Below, piece after piece: positions 3,415 through 49,032 of a DNA stretch of 64,000 nucleotides. The first letter of the stretch is position 1; every line of letters begins with the position of its first letter. This DNA is from Thermoanaerobaculia bacterium (GTDB lineage: Bacteria; Acidobacteriota; Thermoanaerobaculia; Gp7-AA8), in the NCBI GenBank assembly GCA_046260175.1, contig JBHEPS010000001.1, positions 3,502-67,501 on the forward strand, read 5' to 3'. The notes beneath the pieces are model-generated. The model saw only the letters and a program-made list of their open reading frames with translations, ran no database searches and had not been told where the DNA came from. The translations under genes were made by a program, and so were the position numbers.

Positions 3415-3787
3415 ACGCGGCTTTGCGCTGATCACCGCGCTGCTTCTCGCCATCCTCTTTCTCGGGATGATCGAGTTGGCTCTCGCAGACGCGACAGCGG
3501 CACAGCGAGAGGCGCGCCGCTTTCGGGAACGGATCTCCAGCCAGATCCTCGCCGACAATGCGATCGAGCTCGCGGCGGCGGGAATGCTGACCAAGCAGAG
3601 CAACAGCAGCGTCGAGCGCGAGACCGACGCCGGAACGATGAAGGGTTCCTTCAAGATACTTCCGGGCAGCCGATTCGAGCTCGTGGGCGATGGCCTGAGC
3701 GCGGGCCTCGAGGTTCGCGCGACGGTCGTGCTCGAGGGGCGGGTGGTCGGAAACCAGATCGTCATCCAGAAGAGCCGGACCCGTTAG
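3368..3787 (+). CDS. Prepilin-type pseudopilin (third of three)
   Basis: Leader ...RGRTERG | FALITALLLAILFLGMIELALA. It overlaps the upstream gene, so the three form one operon. Confidence 0.6.
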   Translation: MDRSSSIRSSFRGRTERGFALITALLLAILFLGMIELALADATAAQREARRFRERISSQILADNAIELAAAGMLTKQSNSSVERETDAGTMKGSFKILPGSRFELVGDGLSAGLEVRATVVLEGRVVGNQIVIQKSRTR

Positions 3788-22484: not shown

Positions 22485-23516
22485 CTAGGAGGCGGCGCTC
22501 TTTCCGGCCCCTCCCGCCCGCGTCGCTTCCCACGACTCGTAATCGGACGAGAAGAGGGGAACGCGGCTGCGCTTGAACTCGCGCACGGGGAAGAGTGCCT
22601 GCATGTCCGGCACGCCGGTCTGCTTGGAGAGCTCGGCCAGTACGGACTCGCATTCGTCCACGGAGCGGCCGTGGACGATGGTGAAGAGGTTGAACGGCCA
22701 GTCGGGATACGTCGGGCGGAGATAACACTGAGAGACCGCCTTGTGGGCGGTCATGATCGAAGCGACTCGGTCCACCTGATCGCCATCGACCTTCCACACT
22801 CCCATGACGCTCGCCGAGAAGCTCGAGCGCCGGAGCTGAAGGACGGCCCCATAACGCTTCATCTGCTGTTTGCGGGCAAACTCCCGCCCCGCTTCGATCA
22901 ACTCCTCGCCCGACATGCCCCCGGTCCGGGCGAGCACGTCGAACGGCCGCGGATGGAGCGGCAGTTCGGTCTGAAGCAGCTTGATGATCTCGATCTCTCT
23001 CCCGCTCGGCGCCTCGGCGACCGAGTCGGAGCCGTTGGACTCGTCGGCGCCCGATTCGGATGTTTCGGAAGACGCTCCGCGGAAGGAGCGGAGGGCCGGA
23101 AGCAGGCGGACGGCGTCGCACTCGGCTTCCTTTCCGAGAATCTCGACCGTGCGTTCCAGGCCGAGCCTGGAAGTCGGAGGCACCGCGATGGTGAACCAGA
23201 GGTTGAACTCGTGGTTGCGACGGTAGTTCTGGTAGACGCCCGGATGGGAGCTGATGATTCCGGCCGCCGCTTCGAGCCGCTCCTCATTCACGCGCGCGGC
23301 GACGAGCGAGGAACGATAGCCGAACGCTCGAGGGTCGAAAGCCGCGGAGATCTGGAGGAGGTGACCTTCCTTGCGCAGGCGGTCCGCGCGCTTGATCACT
23401 TCCTTTTCGGACATGTCGATCATCTGACCGATGATGGCGAAGGGGGTCGCTGCGAGCGGAACGTCGGCCTGGAGCGTGTTGAGAAGGTCCCTGTCCCGAT
23501 GATCGAGTTCCTGCAT
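22485..23516 (-). CDS. Tandem Lrp/AsnC-like fusion protein, probably a siroheme decarboxylase (AhbA/AhbB or NirDL type)
   Basis: Two repeated halves each carry an HTH (LDHRDRDLLNTLQ...; EIEIIKLLQTELP) followed by an AsnC C-terminal-like fold. This layout matches the AhbAB/NirDL family. The function is inferred from family only. Confidence 0.55.
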   Translation of the reverse strand: MQELDHRDRDLLNTLQADVPLAATPFAIIGQMIDMSEKEVIKRADRLRKEGHLLQISAAFDPRAFGYRSSLVAARVNEERLEAAAGIISSHPGVYQNYRRNHEFNLWFTIAVPPTSRLGLERTVEILGKEAECDAVRLLPALRSFRGASSETSESGADESNGSDSVAEAPSGREIEIIKLLQTELPLHPRPFDVLARTGGMSGEELIEAGREFARKQQMKRYGAVLQLRRSSFSASVMGVWKVDGDQVDRVASIMTAHKAVSQCYLRPTYPDWPFNLFTIVHGRSVDECESVLAELSKQTGVPDMQALFPVREFKRSRVPLFSSDYESWEATRAGGAGKSAAS

Positions 23517-23649: not shown

Positions 23650-24030
23650 TCAGAGCTCCCGGAGGCGGGGTCTTGGCAGGGTTTCCAATTGCTGGCCCCC
23701 TCCCTCGGCCTCCAGCGCGCTGCTGAGCCTCCTGGTCGCTTCCACCGCCACGGTTCGATCCAGGCGCCAGTAATCCTGCTCGAATGGCTCCAGACGCGCG
23801 AGAGCCCGGGTGGCGAGGCGCGTGGCTCCTATACGGTTCCTGCGACCGACGTGGTGCCATGCCGCCGCAACCTGGATCAGCCCCTGAACGAACTGCTTTT
23901 CAGGAGGAGCTGCCACGAGCCAGATCGCCTCCCACGCTTCATGAGCCTCCCAGAACAGCCCTTCGTTGAAGAGGCGGATGCCTTCACGCCGGGCGGCGGC
24001 CGCGTCGAGATCAGACGCGCTCGACTTCAC
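23650..24030 (-). CDS. DUF309 domain protein
   Basis: LFNEGLFWEAHEAWEAIW...QGLIQVAAAWHHV is the conserved DUF309 core. Confidence 0.55.
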   Translation of the reverse strand: MKSSASDLDAAAARREGIRLFNEGLFWEAHEAWEAIWLVAAPPEKQFVQGLIQVAAAWHHVGRRNRIGATRLATRALARLEPFEQDYWRLDRTVAVEATRRLSSALEAEGGGQQLETLPRPRLREL

Positions 24031-25018
24031 GAACGATCGCCTCGGTGAAAGCCGTGGTCGACGAGGAGCCGCCGAGGTCTCGCGTGCGGATCGATCCCTC
24101 CTCGAGCACCCGAATCATCGCCTCCTTCACCCGCCTGGCGGCGTCCCTCTCCTCGAGGTGCTCGAGCATGAGAATCGCGGACTGCAGGAGCGCGATTGGA
24201 TTGGCCTTGTTCTGGCCCGCAATGTCGGGAGCGGAGCCGTGTACGGCCTCGAAGACCGCGCCATGATGTCCGAGGTTCGCTCCCGCGACGACGCCCAGGC
24301 CGCCGACGAGGCCGGCAGCCAGGTCCGAGACGATGTCACCGTAAAGGTTCTCGAGGCAGAGAACGTCGAACTGGTGCGGGTTCGTCACGAGCTGCATGCA
24401 GAGGTTGTCGACGATCTTGTCGTCGGCCTGAATATCCGCAAAGTCCTTGCCGACCTCGTAGAACGTGCTCAGGAAGAGCCCGTCCGTCAGCTTCATGATG
24501 TTGGCTTTGTGAACCGCGGTCACCCTTTTCCGGCCATGAGTCCGCGCGTAATCGAACGCGAACTTCGCGATTCTTCGAGACGCCTTTTCGGTGATGATTT
24601 TCAGGGACTCCATGACGCCCGGGACGACCTCGTGCTCGATCCCGCTGTAGAGACCCTCCGTGTTTTCGCGGACGACGATGATGTCGACGTCCTTGAACGG
24701 CGTCACGATGTTCGGAAGGCTCTGGACCGGTCGCAGGTTGGCGTAGAGGTCGAGCAGCTTTCTCAGCCGGACGTTGATCGACATGAATCCCGTTCCGACG
24801 GGCGTGGTCACGGGGCCCTTGAGCGCGACCTTGTTTGTCCGGATGGAATCGAGAACTTCCTTCGGCAGAGGATCTCCGGCCAGCGCGATCGCTTCGGCGC
24901 CGACGACGTACCTCTCCCACTCGATCTCCACTCCCGCGGCTTCCACGATAGCGACGACCGCGGCCGTGACTTCTGGTCCGATCCCGTCGCCGGGCAATAA
25001 GGTGACTTTGTGACTCAC
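24011..25018 (-). CDS. NAD-dependent isocitrate / homoisocitrate / isopropylmalate dehydrogenase family enzyme (GTG start at 25018 with an AAGGAG RBS; the MRSS... extension in the six-frame track is not used)
   Basis: KVTLLPGDGIGPEV, NLRP, ENTEGLYSG and NLYGDIVSDLAAGLVGGLG are beta-decarboxylating dehydrogenase motifs. The longer ORF would overlap the downstream gene by 59 nt. Confidence 0.8.
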   Translation of the reverse strand: MSHKVTLLPGDGIGPEVTAAVVAIVEAAGVEIEWERYVVGAEAIALAGDPLPKEVLDSIRTNKVALKGPVTTPVGTGFMSINVRLRKLLDLYANLRPVQSLPNIVTPFKDVDIIVVRENTEGLYSGIEHEVVPGVMESLKIITEKASRRIAKFAFDYARTHGRKRVTAVHKANIMKLTDGLFLSTFYEVGKDFADIQADDKIVDNLCMQLVTNPHQFDVLCLENLYGDIVSDLAAGLVGGLGVVAGANLGHHGAVFEAVHGSAPDIAGQNKANPIALLQSAILMLEHLEERDAARRVKEAMIRVLEEGSIRTRDLGGSSSTTAFTEAIVREVERV

Positions 25019-25058
25019 TCCAGACTCCTTTCGTTCTCCGGCAGCGGCCAGCCCCGGA

Positions 25059-26039
25059 CTACTCTCCGATGCCGAAGGCGGCTCGGCCGCCCCTGGGCTC
25101 GGTCGGGAACTCCGCAAGAAGCCCCTCGTACTCGGGTAACTCCCCGATGCATGCCCGAATCGTGGTCAGCGTCGGAGGAATGTAAGCCAGATAGTGGTGG
25201 CGTCGGCGAGCGATGGATTGTCTTGCGAAGGTCCCCACGATCTTGATGGATCGCTGTAGCAGCGTCTCGGCGTACCGTTTCCGGAGGCCGGCGTCGCCGC
25301 CGGAACGCTCGCGATAATACTCGATGAGACGCTCCTCGGCATCCGTCCCGAGCGCCCGTACGATTCCGCGGTCGCGAAGAAGGGATGCGAGGTCGTATGT
25401 ATCCGGGCCCAATCTCAAGTCTTGATAATCGATAACAAATATCTCATCGTTAAATAAATGGATATTTTGACCATGAAAATCACGATGACATAAGACGTAA
25501 GGATGCCGGCTGATCGCGGCGCTGAGCTGGTCGAACCATTGGGTCAAACGGTCGAGCTGGCGGGGGTCCGAGATCGCGCACGCCTGTTCCACCCAGAACT
25601 CGCGGGTCATCGCGAGCTCACGCTGGAAGTCGTCCGCGGCGAAGGGCGGGTTGATCGCTCCGGCGTCCGATGAGCTCTGAAACCCGATTAGAAGGTCGAT
25701 CGCGCGGCGATAGAGATCCCGCCCCTTTTCGGGCTCGGTCTCGAGAATCTCGAACAGGGTGAGGTCGCCCACGTCCTGCTGGACGATGGCGCAAAGGCCG
25801 TGGTGGAGAATCCGTGGGACGCGTGTGACCGGAGAGAGGGCGCCGTAGGCTCCTACGAATCGCCGGATCTGCTCGCGCACCGGCTCCGGATAGTACGCCG
25901 CCATCAACCGCTCTCCCCCCGGGAGGGAGATGCGGAAGTAACCGCGCGTGGAAGCATCGCCGGGGAGCGCTTCGATCTCGAAACGCTCCCCGAGACGCTC
26001 GCGCAGGTAAGTTACGAGCTCTCGCGGCGTTTCGGCCAT
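25059..26039 (-). CDS. APH-family phosphotransferase (aminoglycoside-phosphotransferase / AmgK-like small-molecule kinase fold)
   Basis: Brenner motif HRDFHGQNIHL and DFG-equivalent VIDYQD. The N-terminal lobe carries a conserved Lys. The substrate is unknown. Confidence 0.7.
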   Translation of the reverse strand: MAETPRELVTYLRERLGERFEIEALPGDASTRGYFRISLPGGERLMAAYYPEPVREQIRRFVGAYGALSPVTRVPRILHHGLCAIVQQDVGDLTLFEILETEPEKGRDLYRRAIDLLIGFQSSSDAGAINPPFAADDFQRELAMTREFWVEQACAISDPRQLDRLTQWFDQLSAAISRHPYVLCHRDFHGQNIHLFNDEIFVIDYQDLRLGPDTYDLASLLRDRGIVRALGTDAEERLIEYYRERSGGDAGLRKRYAETLLQRSIKIVGTFARQSIARRRHHYLAYIPPTLTTIRACIGELPEYEGLLAEFPTEPRGGRAAFGIGE

Positions 26040-26097
26040 GGTCCGTCACCGGCCATAAATGCGGATTCGGGGCCAGTGGGGAAGGGCCGAACCTGCC

Positions 26098-26748
26098 TCA
26101 CTGCTGGTCTGCAGCACGGACGGCGATCGACTCGATTCGGACCGGCTCGTCCGGATTCTCTTTTCCCTTGCCGGCTTCGACGATGGCGTCGGCGACATCC
26201 ATTCCGCTGACGACCTCACCGAACACGGTGTACTGGCCGTCGAGGAAGTTGGAGTCCTTGACCACGATGAAGAACTGGGAGGAGGCGCTGTTCGGATTTC
26301 CCGCGCGGGCCATCGACACGATGCCGCGGCGATGCGGAGTGTCGTTGAACTCGGCGTCGAGGTAATTCCCCGAGCCGCCGGTGCCCCAGCTTCCGCGGTT
26401 GTCGGTCTTGGTGTTCGGATCGCCGCCCTGAATCATGAAGCCTGGGATCACGCGATGAAAGCGAACGCCATCGTAGTAGCCGCTCTCGGCCAGATCGATG
26501 AAGTTGCGCACGTGGTTCGGTGCTTTGTCGGGGAAGAAGCGGATCGAGATCGTTCCCTTCTCCGTCTTGATGTCGGCGATCTTGTCGGTGTAGTGGGACA
26601 TTGGTTTCTCCTCTTCGGCGGTTGCCGTCTCTACGGTGGTGGCAGCCGCGGTCTCGGTTTTCACGGCGGTGACCTCGGGAGGCGGTGCGCCGTTGCAGGA
26701 TGCAAACGCCATGGCGATCAGGAACGGGAAAAGGGCGAATCGAGTCAT
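26098..26748 (-). CDS. Cyclophilin-type peptidyl-prolyl cis-trans isomerase, lipoprotein
   Basis: Lipobox AFASC. Cyclophilin core motifs FHRVIPGFMIQGGD, GNYLDAEF, SMARAG and QFFIV. Confidence 0.85.
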   Translation of the reverse strand: MTRFALFPFLIAMAFASCNGAPPPEVTAVKTETAAATTVETATAEEEKPMSHYTDKIADIKTEKGTISIRFFPDKAPNHVRNFIDLAESGYYDGVRFHRVIPGFMIQGGDPNTKTDNRGSWGTGGSGNYLDAEFNDTPHRRGIVSMARAGNPNSASSQFFIVVKDSNFLDGQYTVFGEVVSGMDVADAIVEAGKGKENPDEPVRIESIAVRAADQQ

Positions 26749-26828: not shown

Positions 26829-28463
26829 TCAGCGCAGGACGCGAATCTGGATGGTTCCTTCGGTCGCCTTCAGCACGACCTTGCGCCCGCCCGAGTTCAG
26901 GGCGCCGGTGGCCCGGATCCTGATCTTGTTACCGGCCGTCTCCCGAACGATCGCGAGGCCGGCGATCTCCGAAGTGATCGCCCCGCCGCTCTGCGAGGTC
27001 GTCTCGAGGATCGCCTCGACATCGGCTTTGAATCCGGGCGGAACGAAGAGGATCACGTTTCCTCCCGCGGTCTCCGCCGTGATGGTCTCCGTCTGCACCT
27101 TGGGGTCGACGTAGATGACGACGTCGCCCGAGCGGGTCTCTGCCTTGACCGATGCCCCGGCACTCCTGAGGATCACGTCGCCTCCGCCGGAGCGGAGCGA
27201 AATGGGGCCGCCGGAGCGCAGGACCTGGATATTGCCTCCCTCCGTAGCGGCGGTTCCTCCAAGGCGTGCGTGGCGGACATAGATGTCGCCGACCGAGGTT
27301 CGAGCGTCGAGAGATCCGGCGACTTCTCCGACGTGGAGTGAGCCGCCGTCGGAGCGAAGCAGCCCTTTTCCGCCCACCCGCCCCAGAACGATCTCGCCGG
27401 CGCGGGTCGCCACGTTCACGTCGCCGGCCACTTCACCGACGAAGATGCTTCCGAGCGGGGCGTCGAGCCGGAAGTCACCCTTGACGCTGGCCTGTTGGGT
27501 GACGAACTGGCGGGCGCTGGGAGGCCGGAGAAGCATCGTCGAGGCGACGCGCTGATACGTGGCGCGAAGCTCGGGACGAAGGGGCTCGGGGCCTCTCGCG
27601 ACCGAAGTCGCCGGAGCCGGTTTGCCCCCAGGCGGGGGGACCAGCGCGCGGGCGGAGGCGATCGCCTCGTTAGCCGCGTTCAGGTGCGTGTCGGACATCA
27701 TCGCCGCGGTCCGGATGAACGGCGTGTTCGCCCGACGGACCACGGCCTGGAAGCGCTTGGTCCCTTCCTGATCCCGGGTCTTCCCATCGAGGGGGATCGT
27801 GGTGTAGATCCCCCCGCGGACGGTCTCGGCGACCCAGTTGAACCCGATCTCGCCATGCAGACGAAGCTCGATCGGCCCGTTCACGCTCGACAGACGCCAG
27901 TCGTTGGAGATGGCGGTGTTGAGGTCCGCCAGGATGTGGCCGTTGACGGTGTCGACGTGCACGGGGCCGCTCACACCGGCCAGGATGATCTTTCCGTTCA
28001 CGTTCCTGACGTTGACCGCTCCGCGGACGTTGGTGATGCTGATTTGTTCTCCGCTGACCGTGGCGACGGTCAGCCGGATTCCCGCGGGAACTTCCACGCG
28101 GTAAGAGACCACGCTCTGCCAACGGTCGTTGCGGAGCGGATAGGGAAGGCTGGTCTTGAGGATCCGTGTCTTGTGGTCTCCACCGACGGCAAGAGCCGTT
28201 TTCGAGCGCCCCTCCTGCAGGGCCTCGATGTCGACCGCGCGCACCGCCTTGATGGCCTCCCAACGAACGTTGGGCTGCGCGGTGCCGACGACGATGACCG
28301 AGCCGATTGGATTGTCGATCAGGAGCGAGCCGTCCGCCTCGAGCGACGCGACGCTGCGGATGCGTTCCGTGCTCACCTTTTCGGCGAACACAGGAGCCGC
28401 AACGATCGCCAGCCCGGCAATCGCGAGGATCCAGCGACGATTACCCGTCATGACGGATCTCAC
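26829..28463 (-). CDS. DUF4097-type beta-strand repeat protein (putative adhesin/YvlB-like), secreted
   Basis: Signal peptide, then a repetitive G-x-I/V-x-V pattern (GDVNVATRAGEIVLGRVGG..., SGGPISLRSGGGDVILRS...). It is co-oriented with, and overlaps, the upstream anti-sigma gene. Confidence 0.55.
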   Translation of the reverse strand: MRSVMTGNRRWILAIAGLAIVAAPVFAEKVSTERIRSVASLEADGSLLIDNPIGSVIVVGTAQPNVRWEAIKAVRAVDIEALQEGRSKTALAVGGDHKTRILKTSLPYPLRNDRWQSVVSYRVEVPAGIRLTVATVSGEQISITNVRGAVNVRNVNGKIILAGVSGPVHVDTVNGHILADLNTAISNDWRLSSVNGPIELRLHGEIGFNWVAETVRGGIYTTIPLDGKTRDQEGTKRFQAVVRRANTPFIRTAAMMSDTHLNAANEAIASARALVPPPGGKPAPATSVARGPEPLRPELRATYQRVASTMLLRPPSARQFVTQQASVKGDFRLDAPLGSIFVGEVAGDVNVATRAGEIVLGRVGGKGLLRSDGGSLHVGEVAGSLDARTSVGDIYVRHARLGGTAATEGGNIQVLRSGGPISLRSGGGDVILRSAGASVKAETRSGDVVIYVDPKVQTETITAETAGGNVILFVPPGFKADVEAILETTSQSGGAITSEIAGLAIVRETAGNKIRIRATGALNSGGRKVVLKATEGTIQIRVLR

Positions 28464-29449
28464 AGATCGATCTGCTCCAGGGCTTCGGCAGCCTTGACGC
28501 GGATGTGGAGGATTTCGTCGTCCTGCGACGCCTTCTGGCGAAGCCCGTCGACCATCGACGAATCGAGTGAACCTGACTGGGCGAGATTCGACAGAGCCTC
28601 AACCGCCTTCAGGCGCACTCCGGGGTTCGGGTCATTCCGGAGCGCTTCGACCAGGGCGGCCTGGGTATCGCTCAGGGGGTCCCACGGCAGCGACTTGAGG
28701 GCGTCGATCGCTTTCAGGCGAACGCCCTCGTTACGGTCGCTTCTGAGAACGCGCGCAAGAGCCTGGGTCAGCTCCGGGGTCGATTTTCCTGCCGCCGACC
28801 AGTTGTCGCTGACCCATTGAATCGTCGTCGACCTCGAATGCGTCGTGTTCTGCGGGCTCTCGAGAACGTAGGCGAGAAGGCGCCCGAGGCTCTCGTCGCC
28901 CGCCTGGCCCGTAACCGTGACGTCCGAAGTGATCTCGAAGGCCAGCTGGAGGCCCGACCCGTCGGGTTCCTGCAGGAAGCGGACGTTGTCGATCCTCGGG
29001 GCGCCCTCGATCTCAGGTGAGAGCTGCGAGGAAGGAATCACCCTGTGGGAGACGAGTTGGTAAGGCGTCTCGATCGTCGCAGGGGCCGCTGCCGTCTGGC
29101 CCGGTCCGACCGAAGCCCTCTGCCCCGCGAAGAAAGATCCTCCGACCAGCACGGCCACGGCGGCGGCCTGTGCCAACCATCGGAAGGCCGGGCGCTGAAC
29201 GAACGGCACGACGATTCCGCTCGTGCGCTCAACCCCGATCTCGTCGAGAAATGCGTCGCGCAACCCGGCCGGAACGGGCCTTTCTTCGACCTTGCCCAGG
29301 GTGGTCCATACATCGCGATGACCGGCCCAGGCCTCGCGGCAGGAAGCGCAGCTCTCGACGTGCAGGTGTGCCGACTCACGCTCATCGCCGCCGAGAAACT
29401 CGGTCAGCATCAGCGGCATCAACTCACGGACTACATCACATTCAGACAT
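28460..29449 (-). CDS. Anti-sigma factor (zf-HC2-like N-terminus, TM helix, periplasmic HEAT-repeat domain)
   Basis: N-terminal H/C cluster (HLHVESCASC). TM helix AVAVLVGGSFFAG. C-terminal HEAT-like repeats (VRLKAIDALKSL...; NPGVRLKAVEALSNL). It overlaps the sigma gene by 19 nt. Confidence 0.6.
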   Translation of the reverse strand: MSECDVVRELMPLMLTEFLGGDERESAHLHVESCASCREAWAGHRDVWTTLGKVEERPVPAGLRDAFLDEIGVERTSGIVVPFVQRPAFRWLAQAAAVAVLVGGSFFAGQRASVGPGQTAAAPATIETPYQLVSHRVIPSSQLSPEIEGAPRIDNVRFLQEPDGSGLQLAFEITSDVTVTGQAGDESLGRLLAYVLESPQNTTHSRSTTIQWVSDNWSAAGKSTPELTQALARVLRSDRNEGVRLKAIDALKSLPWDPLSDTQAALVEALRNDPNPGVRLKAVEALSNLAQSGSLDSSMVDGLRQKASQDDEILHIRVKAAEALEQIDL

Positions 29450-30039
29450 CGGTCGCCTCCCGCTTCATCCGCCGAGAGCACCTTCTTGAGGGTCTCCATC
29501 GCACGGAACACGCGCGTCTTGACAGCCCCCTCCGAGCAGCCCGCGATCCGGGCGATTTCCGCATAGGAGAGCCCCTGATAACGGGAGAGCAGGATCGCCT
29601 CCCTCTGCTCCGGAGTCAGCATCTGCAACGCGTTCTGCACGCGCAATTCGTCTTCCTTGATTTCCATGTTCCGCTCCGGCGAAGGCTGGCTGCTGTCCGC
29701 CAGGGTCAACAGCGTCTCTTCCGGTTCCTTCGGGCGGTTGTCCGCCTTTCGAAGATGGTCGCGGCAGTGATTCGCCGTGATCGAAAACAACCACGTCGAA
29801 AGCTTTGCGTCACCGTGAAACTGCTTCGCATACCGGATCATCTTCACGAACACTTCCTGGGTCGCATCCTCGGCCGCCTCCGGAGTCCTCAGAAACCGGT
29901 ACGCGAAGTTGTAGATCCGCGCGCTGTAGCGATCGAAGATTTCGCCTGCAGGGCTGAGGTCGCCTTCCTGGAGGAGTTTCATCAACTCCTGATCGCTCAG
30001 GCGCTTCATCCCTGACTCTGATTTGTTCGACGGACTCAT
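29431..30039 (-). CDS. ECF (sigma-70 family group IV) RNA polymerase sigma factor
   Basis: Region 2 (ATQEVFVKMIRY...WLFSITANHCRDHLR) and region 4 HTH (LSYAEIARIAGCSEGAVKTRVFRAMETL). Confidence 0.85.
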   Translation of the reverse strand: MSPSNKSESGMKRLSDQELMKLLQEGDLSPAGEIFDRYSARIYNFAYRFLRTPEAAEDATQEVFVKMIRYAKQFHGDAKLSTWLFSITANHCRDHLRKADNRPKEPEETLLTLADSSQPSPERNMEIKEDELRVQNALQMLTPEQREAILLSRYQGLSYAEIARIAGCSEGAVKTRVFRAMETLKKVLSADEAGGDRCLNVM

Positions 30040-48703: not shown

Positions 48704-48934
48704 TCAGGCTTTTTTCAGGAGCGACTTGACGGTGTCGGAGAGCTGGGCGCCCTTGCTGACCCAGAAATCCACCCGCTCGCGGTCGAGTTTGAGGTCGATC
48801 GGTTTCCTGGTGGGGTTGTAGTGGCCGATCTGCTCGAGGGTCGCGGCGGACGGGGTCCGCTGCGAATCGGAGACGACGATCCGGTAAAAGGGGGCATGCT
48901 TCGAGCCCTGGCGGCGCAGACGAATCTTCAGCAT
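48704..48934 (-). CDS. rpsP: 30S ribosomal protein S16
   Basis: [21 protein letters not shown]...GHYNP is canonical S16. Confidence 0.9.
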
Positions 48935-49032
48935 CTCGAGTAATTTCCTTCGTTGATCATCAAAAGTCGGATTTCGGGGGATCCGCCCACTGCGGGCAGT
49001 CCACCGTCATAACCCGGAAAGTAACGCCGGGC

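Follow-up and report, generated by a model that had tools for sequence, protein, structure and literature searches.

A window of 64,000 nt (positions 3,502 to 67,501 of contig JBHEPS010000001.1 in the Thermoanaerobaculia assembly GCA_046260175.1) contains a short A/T-rich island inside the minus-strand gene for an APH-family kinase. Here and in the orthologs of the gene, ~34 codons over the catalytic and Mg-binding loops are kept at a synonymous equilibrium rich in A/T although the genomes are GC-rich. The island is a synonymous-constraint element embedded in coding sequence, and it is very probably an old, clade-wide feature at the nucleotide level, held by selection in one clade of the Thermoanaerobaculia (Acidobacteriota). 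The gene, the island and the motifs beneath it are placed in the window as follows.

25059..26039, minus strand: APH-family (AmgK-like) kinase gene, 326 aa (Pfam PF01636 APH, E 3.8e-21; PDB 3csv, E 2.4e-40)
25407..25508, minus strand: AT-rich synonymous island, codons 178–211, with its core at 25411–25502; the limits are from the ortholog analysis
25464..25487, minus strand: Brenner catalytic loop HRDFHGQN, codons H185–N192, in which D187 (GAT), F/Y188 (TTT/TAT) and N192 (AAT) are among the most constrained synonymous sites
25428..25430, minus strand: codon D204 (GAT), the Mg-binding Asp of IDYQD and the DFG-equivalent, invariant in the alignment and matching IDFQD of 3csv

The island core has a GC content of 30.4%, compared with 64.0% for the whole window and 61.8% for the kinase gene, and is the deepest 92-nt GC minimum in the 64 kb, lying 6.7 standard deviations under the mean; the next minima are at 43–45%. 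Its 40-nt minimum is 0.23, and every other open reading frame (ORF) or intergenic gap in the 64 kb stays at or above 0.38. Amino-acid composition as the sole cause is ruled out: together with the codon usage of the window it predicts 51.8% GC (standard deviation 2.6) where 31.2% is observed (z = −7.9), and none of 100,000 simulations on this basis reaches so low a value. A/T-ending codons account for 22 of 31 in the patch and for 65 of 295 in the remainder of the gene. The local codon adaptation index (CAI) is 0.27 over the island and 0.5–0.88 elsewhere, and the codon log-likelihood per codon is −1.08 against +0.30 elsewhere, which marks a significant rare-codon cluster by the genome's own usage. 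TTA, present twice in the patch, occurs only five times in the 17,965 codons of the window's other ORFs.

The dip had been noticed in a sequence-only reading of the window that gave 28% GC for the patch and 68% for the gene. Both figures are corrected by the values above, and the dip itself is confirmed by the GC minimum and the CAI, the sliding-window measures that had been proposed for checking it. The limits then given, 25411–25502, stand for the core, and the orthologs extend the full island slightly beyond them. The codons listed in that reading are the exact minus-strand codons, its statement that nothing else in the 64 kb looks like this agrees with the ranking of GC minima, and its placing of the patch over the Brenner loop and the Mg-binding Asp is supported by both the alignment with 3csv and the Pfam APH match. 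Just one other 60-nt stretch in the 64 kb falls under 42% GC (0.417), at 48915–48982 in a 303-nt gap between convergent ORFs.

A one-genome-per-species scan yielded 19 orthologous loci from Thermoanaerobaculia/Acidobacteriota metagenome-assembled genomes (MAGs), at 49–87% identity and in DNA of 61–68% GC, and a metagenome scan yielded 80 further loci; the codon alignment holds 96 distinct genes, which form 48 clusters at 80% identity and have pairwise identities as low as 47%. All 19 genome loci carry the same stretch at 36–51% GC, with T-ending codons. Across the 96 orthologs the GC content at third codon positions (GC3) is about 0.42–0.44 inside the island (residues ~178–212) and 0.82 outside, with a floor of 0.30 over HRDFHGQNIHLFNDEIF, and the island value is under that of the rest of the gene in all but one of the 96. 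As a 60-nt region below 42% GC the island is present in 97 of 99 loci, in most of which it is the sole such region within ~7 kb. GC3 stays at 0.84–0.91 in other stretches that match the island in conservation or in their share of AT-type residues. The per-site log-odds for A or T at position 3 climb from codon 178 and are back to zero past codon 212. Among the 96 genes, N192 is written AAT in 95, D187 GAT in 86, residue 188 TAT or TTT in 88, Y205 TAT in 84, H179 CAT in 81 and L200 CTT in 58, while the codon for L183 is TTA in 44, CTA in 33 and CTT in 10.

The island is also kept by deep members of the family at 43–44% identity, with GC3 values of 0.30 in the island and 0.78 in the rest of the gene for locus L102, and of 0.21 and 0.69 for L103, the latter on a contig of 57% GC. 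A profile-free exhaustive search of 1.84 billion cluster representatives recovered orthologs down to this same level (43–44% identity, E ~1e-76), followed by a gap, after which the next families appear at 35–39% identity (E ≤ 1e-40). Searching PLSDB with tblastn gave distant homologs only, two of them usable as outgroups, and a scan of viral_contigs for further relatives found none. Seven outgroup kinases (L100, L101, L104–L107 and L109), encoded in DNA of 56–69% GC, show no dip. Five of them, representatives of the nearest other families in DNA of 56–68% GC, have nearly the same motif (LCHRDFHSRNL...IDFQDARLG), and their GC3 values in the island-equivalent and in the rest of the gene are 0.85/0.81, 0.82/0.90, 0.82/0.65, 0.87/0.79 and 0.74/0.75. 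A Sphingomonas homolog, in which the kinase lies between tsaE and a nucleotidyltransferase in the canonical AmgK-MurU-like pairing, is without a dip, as is a Halomonas homolog. The position of the rare-codon cluster is shared within the clade (95 of 96 genes, plus the two deep members) and not with the seven outgroup homologs.

Two observations bear on whether the island is maintained or only inherited. At positions where residues are shared, the codon is identical in 0.55 of comparisons within the island and in 0.54 outside it, and the two are alike in every divergence class; this normal synonymous turnover indicates that the A/T composition is an equilibrium and not a frozen relic. Moreover, a single ortholog, L084 (105–1127 of a locus spanning 1–1390), has no island and writes the same motif at a GC3 of 0.88, equal to that of the rest of its gene, so the protein does not force the composition of the island.

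The encoded kinase matches PF01636 over residues 21–247 at 76.4 bits (cutoff 23.2), and its closest solved relative is PDB 3csv, an 'aminoglycoside phosphotransferase', which aligns over residues 6–296. A protein that is 100% identical is present in NCBI as a Thermoanaerobaculia MAG protein. The Brenner motif has the form H185-R-D187-x4-N192 (HxDxxxxN), followed by the Mg-binding D204 (IDxxD); H185, D187, N192, D204 and D207 are invariant in the alignment and align with HRDFHAQN and IDFQD of 3csv, and neither the frame nor the catalytic motif of this gene is disrupted. AmgK, the anomeric MurNAc/GlcNAc kinase of AmgK-MurU peptidoglycan recycling, shares the APH-type fold family and the motifs with this kinase, close relatives of which are labelled 'N-acetylmuramate 1-kinase' by some sources. 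The AmgK equivalog cutoffs are, however, not reached (NF045759, 87 bits against 550; NF045698, 59.9 against 500), and no MurU-type nucleotidyltransferase lies beside the kinase in the window or in nearly all of the orthologous loci checked; where AmgK is paired with such an enzyme, the kinase here stands between a peptidyl-prolyl isomerase (PPIase) and an isocitrate dehydrogenase (IDH). By its sequence it is thus an APH-fold protein of the AmgK-like group that lacks both the profile score and the MurU pairing of AmgK itself.

The distribution of the constraint within the island is uneven. Measured against the same amino acids elsewhere in the gene, the log-odds for A or T at position 3 range from about 0 to +7.5, with peaks at residues 179, 183, 187/188, 192, 196, 200 and 205, and G190, I203, Q206 and D207 are neutral though rarer synonyms exist for them. 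Constraint is strongest at codons only slightly off the optimum, for which one tRNA reads both the codon and its synonym (AAT 99%, GAT 90%, TAT 92–93%). Where a rare synonym is chosen the choice is specific to the site: CTA or TTA at 183 but CTT at 200 (58 genes, against 6 with CTA), GTT and not GTA at 182, CCA at 180 but CCT at 212, and at R186 CGC or CGT exclusively, with AGA, AGG and CGA absent. Altogether the shift to A and T touches the codons of at least twelve amino acids, and the two bases are about equally frequent at position 3 where both are allowed.

What distinguishes the constrained sites is their surroundings. Sites with A or T on both flanks have a mean log-odds of ~4.5, compared with ~2.2 otherwise (a hand tally from the per-site table). 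The window's other genes lack this flank effect, and in them AAY before A is written AAT only 20% of the time; a genome-wide codon-context bias is ruled out, since flanking A/T does not raise the A/T content of third positions elsewhere. The result is a series of short runs along the island:

25425..25480, minus strand: five A/T tracts of at least 5 nt, ~13 nt apart (alignment positions 187.2–188.3, 192.1–193.3, 196–197, 200.2–201.3 and 204.2–205.3)

The tracts read ATTAT, AATATW, TWAAT, TTTAT and ATTAT, and each place is occupied in 61–91% of the orthologs. Their best period is 13.0 nt, with a power of 1.61; a null preserving the amino acids of every gene and the codon usage of the island as a whole gives 0.65 ± 0.08, and none of its 200 replicates reaches the observed value. 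The codon log-odds have a period of 4.3 codons (permutation p about 0.005). The spacing is in part set by AT-permissive residues (D-Y, N-I, x-N, L-Y and D-Y), and may thus be a by-product and not a spacing requirement. Amino-acid choice is affected as well. Variable residues in the island have a GC content at codon positions 1 and 2 (GC12) of 0.36, compared with 0.60 in variable columns elsewhere (p 0.006; these are beta-strand positions, which qualifies the comparison), and the island GC12 is 0.40 in the clade and 0.45–0.56 in three outgroups. The pressure favours contiguous A/T tracts and draws variable residues to AT-rich codons, and its outcome is an easily melted stretch without structure, the only such one in tens of kilobases. 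The contiguity of the tracts, the site-specific bases and the pull on GC12 together point to a constraint on the nucleic acid, and away from decoding speed.

At the 3′ end of the island R209 (25413–25415) is written AGA in 48 of the 96 genes, paired with a next codon that starts with A or T (AGA-ATG, AGA-TTG or AGA-TTA), while CGN goes with CTN. AGA-ATG is also found in the islandless outgroup L105, and this may be a separate codon-pair effect.

The genes on either side of the kinase are on the same strand and are close to it:

24011..25018, minus strand: NAD-dependent isocitrate dehydrogenase (IDH, icd), directly downstream of the kinase (TIGR00175, 450.5 bits against a cutoff of 432.4)
26098..26748, minus strand: cyclophilin-type PPIase, directly upstream across a 58-nt gap (NCBIfam PPIase A/B matches)

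Between the stop of the kinase and the start of IDH there are 40 nt (window 25016–25061) with only an AAAGGAG Shine-Dalgarno sequence, and in some orthologs the two genes overlap (L084:1094–1127; L097), an arrangement suggesting that the kinase and NAD-IDH are co-transcribed and perhaps translationally coupled. The gene order in the clade—DUF4097 protein, cyclophilin PPIase, kinase, NAD-IDH—is essentially invariant, with IDH directly 3′ of the kinase in 85 of 86 orthologous loci and PPIase directly 5′ in 84 of 87. Both deep members, L102 and L103, have IDH downstream, and the order is unchanged in the islandless L084, with PPIase upstream and the IDH ATG at 1094 inside the kinase ORF (stop 1127). 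Of the seven outgroup kinases, none whose downstream neighbour is known has IDH there; their neighbours are a nucleotidyltransferase, either upstream with CYTH (L104, L105) or downstream (L100), or else unrelated genes. An AmgK-like nucleotidyltransferase pairing is seen among the loci only in these three outgroups, all of them without the island.

On balance we lean towards an island that works as DNA or RNA rather than by setting the speed of decoding. Selection would then act on the gene's DNA or mRNA rather than on the kinase protein and how it folds, and would serve expression of the PPIase-kinase-IDH string. The concrete mechanism that we prefer, tentatively and from sequence features, is an internal transcription-start region operating in the sense and/or the antisense direction, an AT-tract 'promoter island' that would drive or adjust expression of the downstream icd separately from that of the upstream genes. 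These are three nested claims (a selected element, its action as DNA or RNA, and a transcription-start region), and roughly 0.45 is a compromise figure for our confidence across them.

Several features are consistent with an internal start. As the kinase and IDH genes are separated by 40 nt or overlap, a promoter specific to IDH would have to sit within coding sequence farther upstream, where nothing nearby but the island melts easily. The catalytic loop would have been used because its residues (H, D, N, Y, F and I) make it the only place in the gene that allows a long A/T run with the enzyme unchanged. On the sense strand the arrangement aTGTCA-16-CA[G/A]AAT is found in 95 of the 96 orthologs, with A-11 and T-7 kept; the near-invariant T of the AAT codon is the would-be −7 T. 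On the antisense strand the −10-like hexamer GATAAT/GAAAAT, formed from GAT-TAT/TTT-C, is 'good' in 83% of orthologs where 55% is expected (z 5.3), and TATTCT and TATATT are enriched too; GATAAT itself (5/6) is present in 56 of 96, with a poor −35.

Other results weigh against an internal start. A consensus promoter scan of 24900–26200 finds none. The sense candidate scores only 8–9 of 12 and is mostly dictated by the residues C-H and Q-N; position 3 of L183 is A in 81% of genes though T would improve the −35; and sense −10-like hexamers are not enriched over an amino-acid-preserving null. The antisense test also yields depletions of similar size, and no good −35 accompanies the antisense hexamers. 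A canonical promoter-like site, TTGACA-N16/17-TAACAT, precedes tRNA-Ser(GCT) in several loci of the clade; as the lineage uses canonical promoters, a good one could have been written in the island, but the island lacks one. Gaps that contain promoters elsewhere in the 64 kb do not come close to its AT content, and a promoter alone does not need 100 nt at 25–30% GC. The island lies ~390–490 nt upstream of the IDH start, and L084 lost it with no change in gene order. Finally, because the island coincides with one clade and one gene arrangement, its link to IDH order is confounded with clade membership, and no informative breaks of gene order were found within the clade that could separate an 'IDH promoter' from a 'kinase-intrinsic' role.

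Intragenic promoters and AT-rich 'promoter islands' of bacterial coding DNA (e.g. Singh et al. 2014, PMC3923964; Warman et al. 2020, PMC7229825) are described as mostly spurious, situated in horizontally acquired AT-rich DNA, and silenced. Compared with those cases, the kinase island is likewise AT-rich within a gene, has several −10-like hexamers on both strands, and is upstream of a gene without room for its own intergenic promoter; it differs in lying in native GC-rich DNA, in being conserved, and in having no good −35 in a lineage that uses TTGACA. Somewhat more doubtful than the internal start is a second form of cis element, in which the A/T-tract array would be an undescribed embedded element, conserved throughout a class of uncultured Acidobacteriota and written into the synonymous and partly the non-synonymous freedom of the catalytic loop. 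A DNA- or RNA-binding machine, such as RNA polymerase, Rho or a nucleoid protein, would load there and so control NAD-IDH, a gene of central metabolism, from within the neighbouring gene.

The canonical promoter-like sites just mentioned belong to a second AT-rich dip that a sub-lineage has ~2 kb upstream of the island (L054:1442–1576, L057:1377–1493, L086:1361–1481 and L065:1100–1223; read by sequence only, L029:186–282, L051:287–417 and L099:115–246). In L054, L057, L086 and L065, where tRNA genes were called, it follows tRNA-Ser(TGA) and comes just before tRNA-Ser(GCT). The dip is a long inverted repeat of heptad-like repeats, with (GAATGTT)n in L029, L054, L057 and L086 and other units in L051, L065 and L099. 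The TTGACA-N16/17-TAACAT site lies within it in L029, L054, L057 and L086, which indicates that the lineage uses standard sigma-70-type promoters. As a relative of the island the dip was rejected, being an unrelated spacer between two tRNA-Ser genes.

The main rival explanation is at the level of translation. A conserved rare-codon cluster would slow ribosomes over codons ~178–211, so that the emerged N-lobe or helical region folds, or a partner binds, before the catalytic core is made. The sequence-only reading had proposed a programmed slow-down, and in this general form the proposal stands as an unlikely but serious competitor. The low local CAI is what it predicts, and the rarest codons recur at fixed sites: L183 is TTA or CTA in 77 of 96 genes, ATA is common at 193 and 195, NTA is common at 196, and AGA is used at 209 in half of the orthologs. 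Placed by the alignment with 3csv, the island also begins ~30–40 codons past the N-terminal half, the spacing classically associated with a folding pause. Chaney et al. 2017 (PMC5438181) described rare-codon clusters whose positions are conserved among homologs, and the island resembles those clusters in being a set of non-optimal codons at one alignment position in many homologs, within a domain and not between domains, with the codon class conserved while codon identity turns over. It is unlike them in being confined to a single clade, in following A/T contiguity and specific bases, and in pulling amino acids with it. What turns us from the pause is that the dip is missing from all seven outgroup kinases, five of which have nearly the same motif; that the most constrained codons, AAT, GAT and TAT, are read by the same tRNAs as their C-ending synonyms; and that rarity is not what is selected, given CTT over CTA at L200, GTT over GTA at V182, only CGC or CGT at R186, and the neutrality of I203, G190, D207 and Q206. 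Nor would decoding speed be expected to produce the effect of A/T contiguity or the shift of variable residues to codons that are AT-rich at positions 1 and 2.

Less probable again, and likewise drawn from sequence, is a role in the transcript as an A/U-rich, G-poor, unstructured entry site for an RNase E/Y-type endonuclease, Rho, Hfq or S1, which would make the parts of the polycistronic mRNA before and after the site differ in level or lifetime. Folding of the mRNA is weak only over the island, where the mean 60-nt minimum free energy is −7 to −8 kcal/mol, compared with −15 to −25 elsewhere. The sense composition of the island is A 28, C 22, G 15 and U 35%, the ratio of C to G exceeds 1 in 95% of orthologs, it offers pyrimidine-containing tracts ~13 nt apart over ~80–100 nt, and it is tied to an operon-like string of genes. 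The reported size of the RNA site per Rho protomer is ~13 nt, and a precedent exists in GC-rich Rhodobacter capsulatus, whose puf operon has a rate-limiting cleavage site of the RNase E type within a coding region. The island shares with such endonuclease and Rho entry sites the lack of structure, the scarcity of G, the A/U-richness and the length of ~80–100 nt within an operon ORF of a GC-rich organism. Judged against a rut site, which is ~80 nt of unstructured, G-poor RNA with more C than G, it has 15% G, 22% C and weak folding, yet it is U-rich and not C-rich. It also differs in having no preference for U over A: there is no strand-specific choice of base, A and T being about equal where both are allowed. 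The C/G ratio is equally high at residues 264–282, where there is no island, T in place of C at position 3 makes no YC dinucleotides, and translating ribosomes would cover the site.

It is improbable that the island forms part of a nested unit, as a promoter and 5′-UTR-like (untranslated) region for an in-frame start at codon 210 that would give a C-terminal fragment of 117 aa or keep ribosomes on the IDH leader. The codon concerned is at the 3′ edge of the island:

25410..25412, minus strand: codon 210, TTG here and ATG in 71 of 96 orthologs, a candidate internal start

The geometry is suggestive, with CA[G/A]AAT at −57 to −52, AGGA at −11 to −8, the ATG at codon 210 and the end of the island coinciding with it, and the short or absent space between the kinase stop and the IDH start would suit such an arrangement. 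Set against this, 23 of the 96 genes have no ATG at 208 or 210 and their islands are equally strong; equal islands accompany CTG, CTC, CGC, GAC or ACA at codon 210, so an internal start is not required. In this window the codon is TTG and CAA-GAC destroys the AGGA, Q206 CAG and D207 GAY occur at genome-default frequencies, and M or L at this place, even AGA-ATG, is also found in islandless outgroups.

A mosaic origin is very unlikely, and in its recent form it is refuted by the 19 genome loci and 80 metagenome loci. In the single genome the contrast in composition does resemble a foreign insert, and gene conversion or horizontal gene transfer (HGT) from a low-GC homolog had been one of the two readings offered for the patch; an ancient, unameliorated patch, or a neutral local relaxation of the GC-favouring force, would be variants of this. 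This origin fails on the orthologs, the refuting condition that the sequence-only reading had itself set: the codons for the same residues are A/T-rich in 95 of 96 genes and in the members at 43–44% identity. Synonymous sites in the island have turned over as they have elsewhere, and in the absence of selection their GC3 would reach ~0.8. The edges are sharp and the length, ~100 nt, is under that of a typical conversion tract, and a mutational process would not be expected to produce site-specific preferences such as AAT at 99% beside CAT at 46% for H194.

Still less credible is control of the bldA kind, also raised in the sequence-only reading, in which expression of the kinase would depend on a rare, regulated tRNA-Leu(UAA) reading TTA in the active site. 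The scarcity of TTA in the window's other ORFs makes the two in this island conspicuous, and Streptomyces bldA/TTA control likewise involves very rare A/T-rich Leu codons in the genes of a high-GC bacterium. In contrast to that system, TTA here is exchangeable with CTA and CTT: 36 of the 96 orthologs have no TTA in the island (60 have one), the CTA (33) and CTT (10) found at L183 are read by different tRNAs, and the A/T shift spans ~34 codons and at least twelve amino acids. The TTA version of the slow-down is accordingly dropped. There is no tRNA gene within the 64-kb window.

An assembly chimera or sequencing artefact, for which the abrupt change in composition is the only argument, can be dismissed, since the same island with the same codons is present in ~100 independently assembled contigs (NCBI, JGI, ENA and Logan), with frame and catalytic motif intact.

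Other kinds of embedded feature were sought over the same interval. RNAalifold on the 96 sequences returned an empty consensus, with no conserved structure, and Rfam gave no relevant match at E ≤ 1. An overlapping ORF in another frame or on the other strand was rejected, as most orthologs have interruptions in the other frames that cross the island. A replication origin, terminus or dif site was rejected too, there being no switch in GC skew and the island lying inside a conserved gene. Inspection by eye for Fur, DnaA, IHF, sigma-54, LysR (T-N11-A) and H-NS boxes gave no convincing match.

The literature holds general work on rare codons and on intragenic promoters, in which we found no description of the island or of codon usage in Thermoanaerobaculia. 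In outline the island is like a conserved rare-codon cluster and, physically, like an intragenic promoter island; it departs from both in being specific to a clade, in favouring A/T contiguity over rarity, in shaping amino acids, and in being native and conserved. As a natural example of strong selection at synonymous positions it is unusually clear: GC3 is reversed (0.3–0.4 against 0.8) over 100 nt in more than 100 lineages at saturating divergence, and the recoded L084 and the islandless outgroups serve as natural controls. An active-site motif can, on this evidence, also carry a nucleic-acid signal because its residues allow A/T-rich writing, and calls of HGT or mosaicism that are based on composition can err at a scale below that of the gene. 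For the Thermoanaerobaculia, a group with almost no experimental genetics, the island is a defined target for the study of how expression is organised. Codon optimisation or recoding of the kinase for heterologous expression would erase it.

Two further observations concern the surrounding genes. A terminator-like hairpin with a T-rich tail lies on the plus strand at 26134–26157, antisense to the 3′ end of the PPIase gene and ~650 nt beyond the island when read along that strand. Compared with shuffled sequence the count is not significant (2, where 0.7 ± 1.1 are expected), and the hairpin may not be conserved, since L054 encodes a different protein sequence at the end of its PPIase gene. Upstream of the PPIase gene, at 26829–30039 on the minus strand, are three same-strand genes separated by very short gaps, which encode a 544-aa DUF4097/LiaG-like protein, an anti-sigma-factor-like protein (NF052375, a weak match) and a 202-aa ORF that is maybe its sigma factor. 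The string from these genes down to a siroheme decarboxylase AhbA/B fusion (22485–23516) may form a single long transcription unit.

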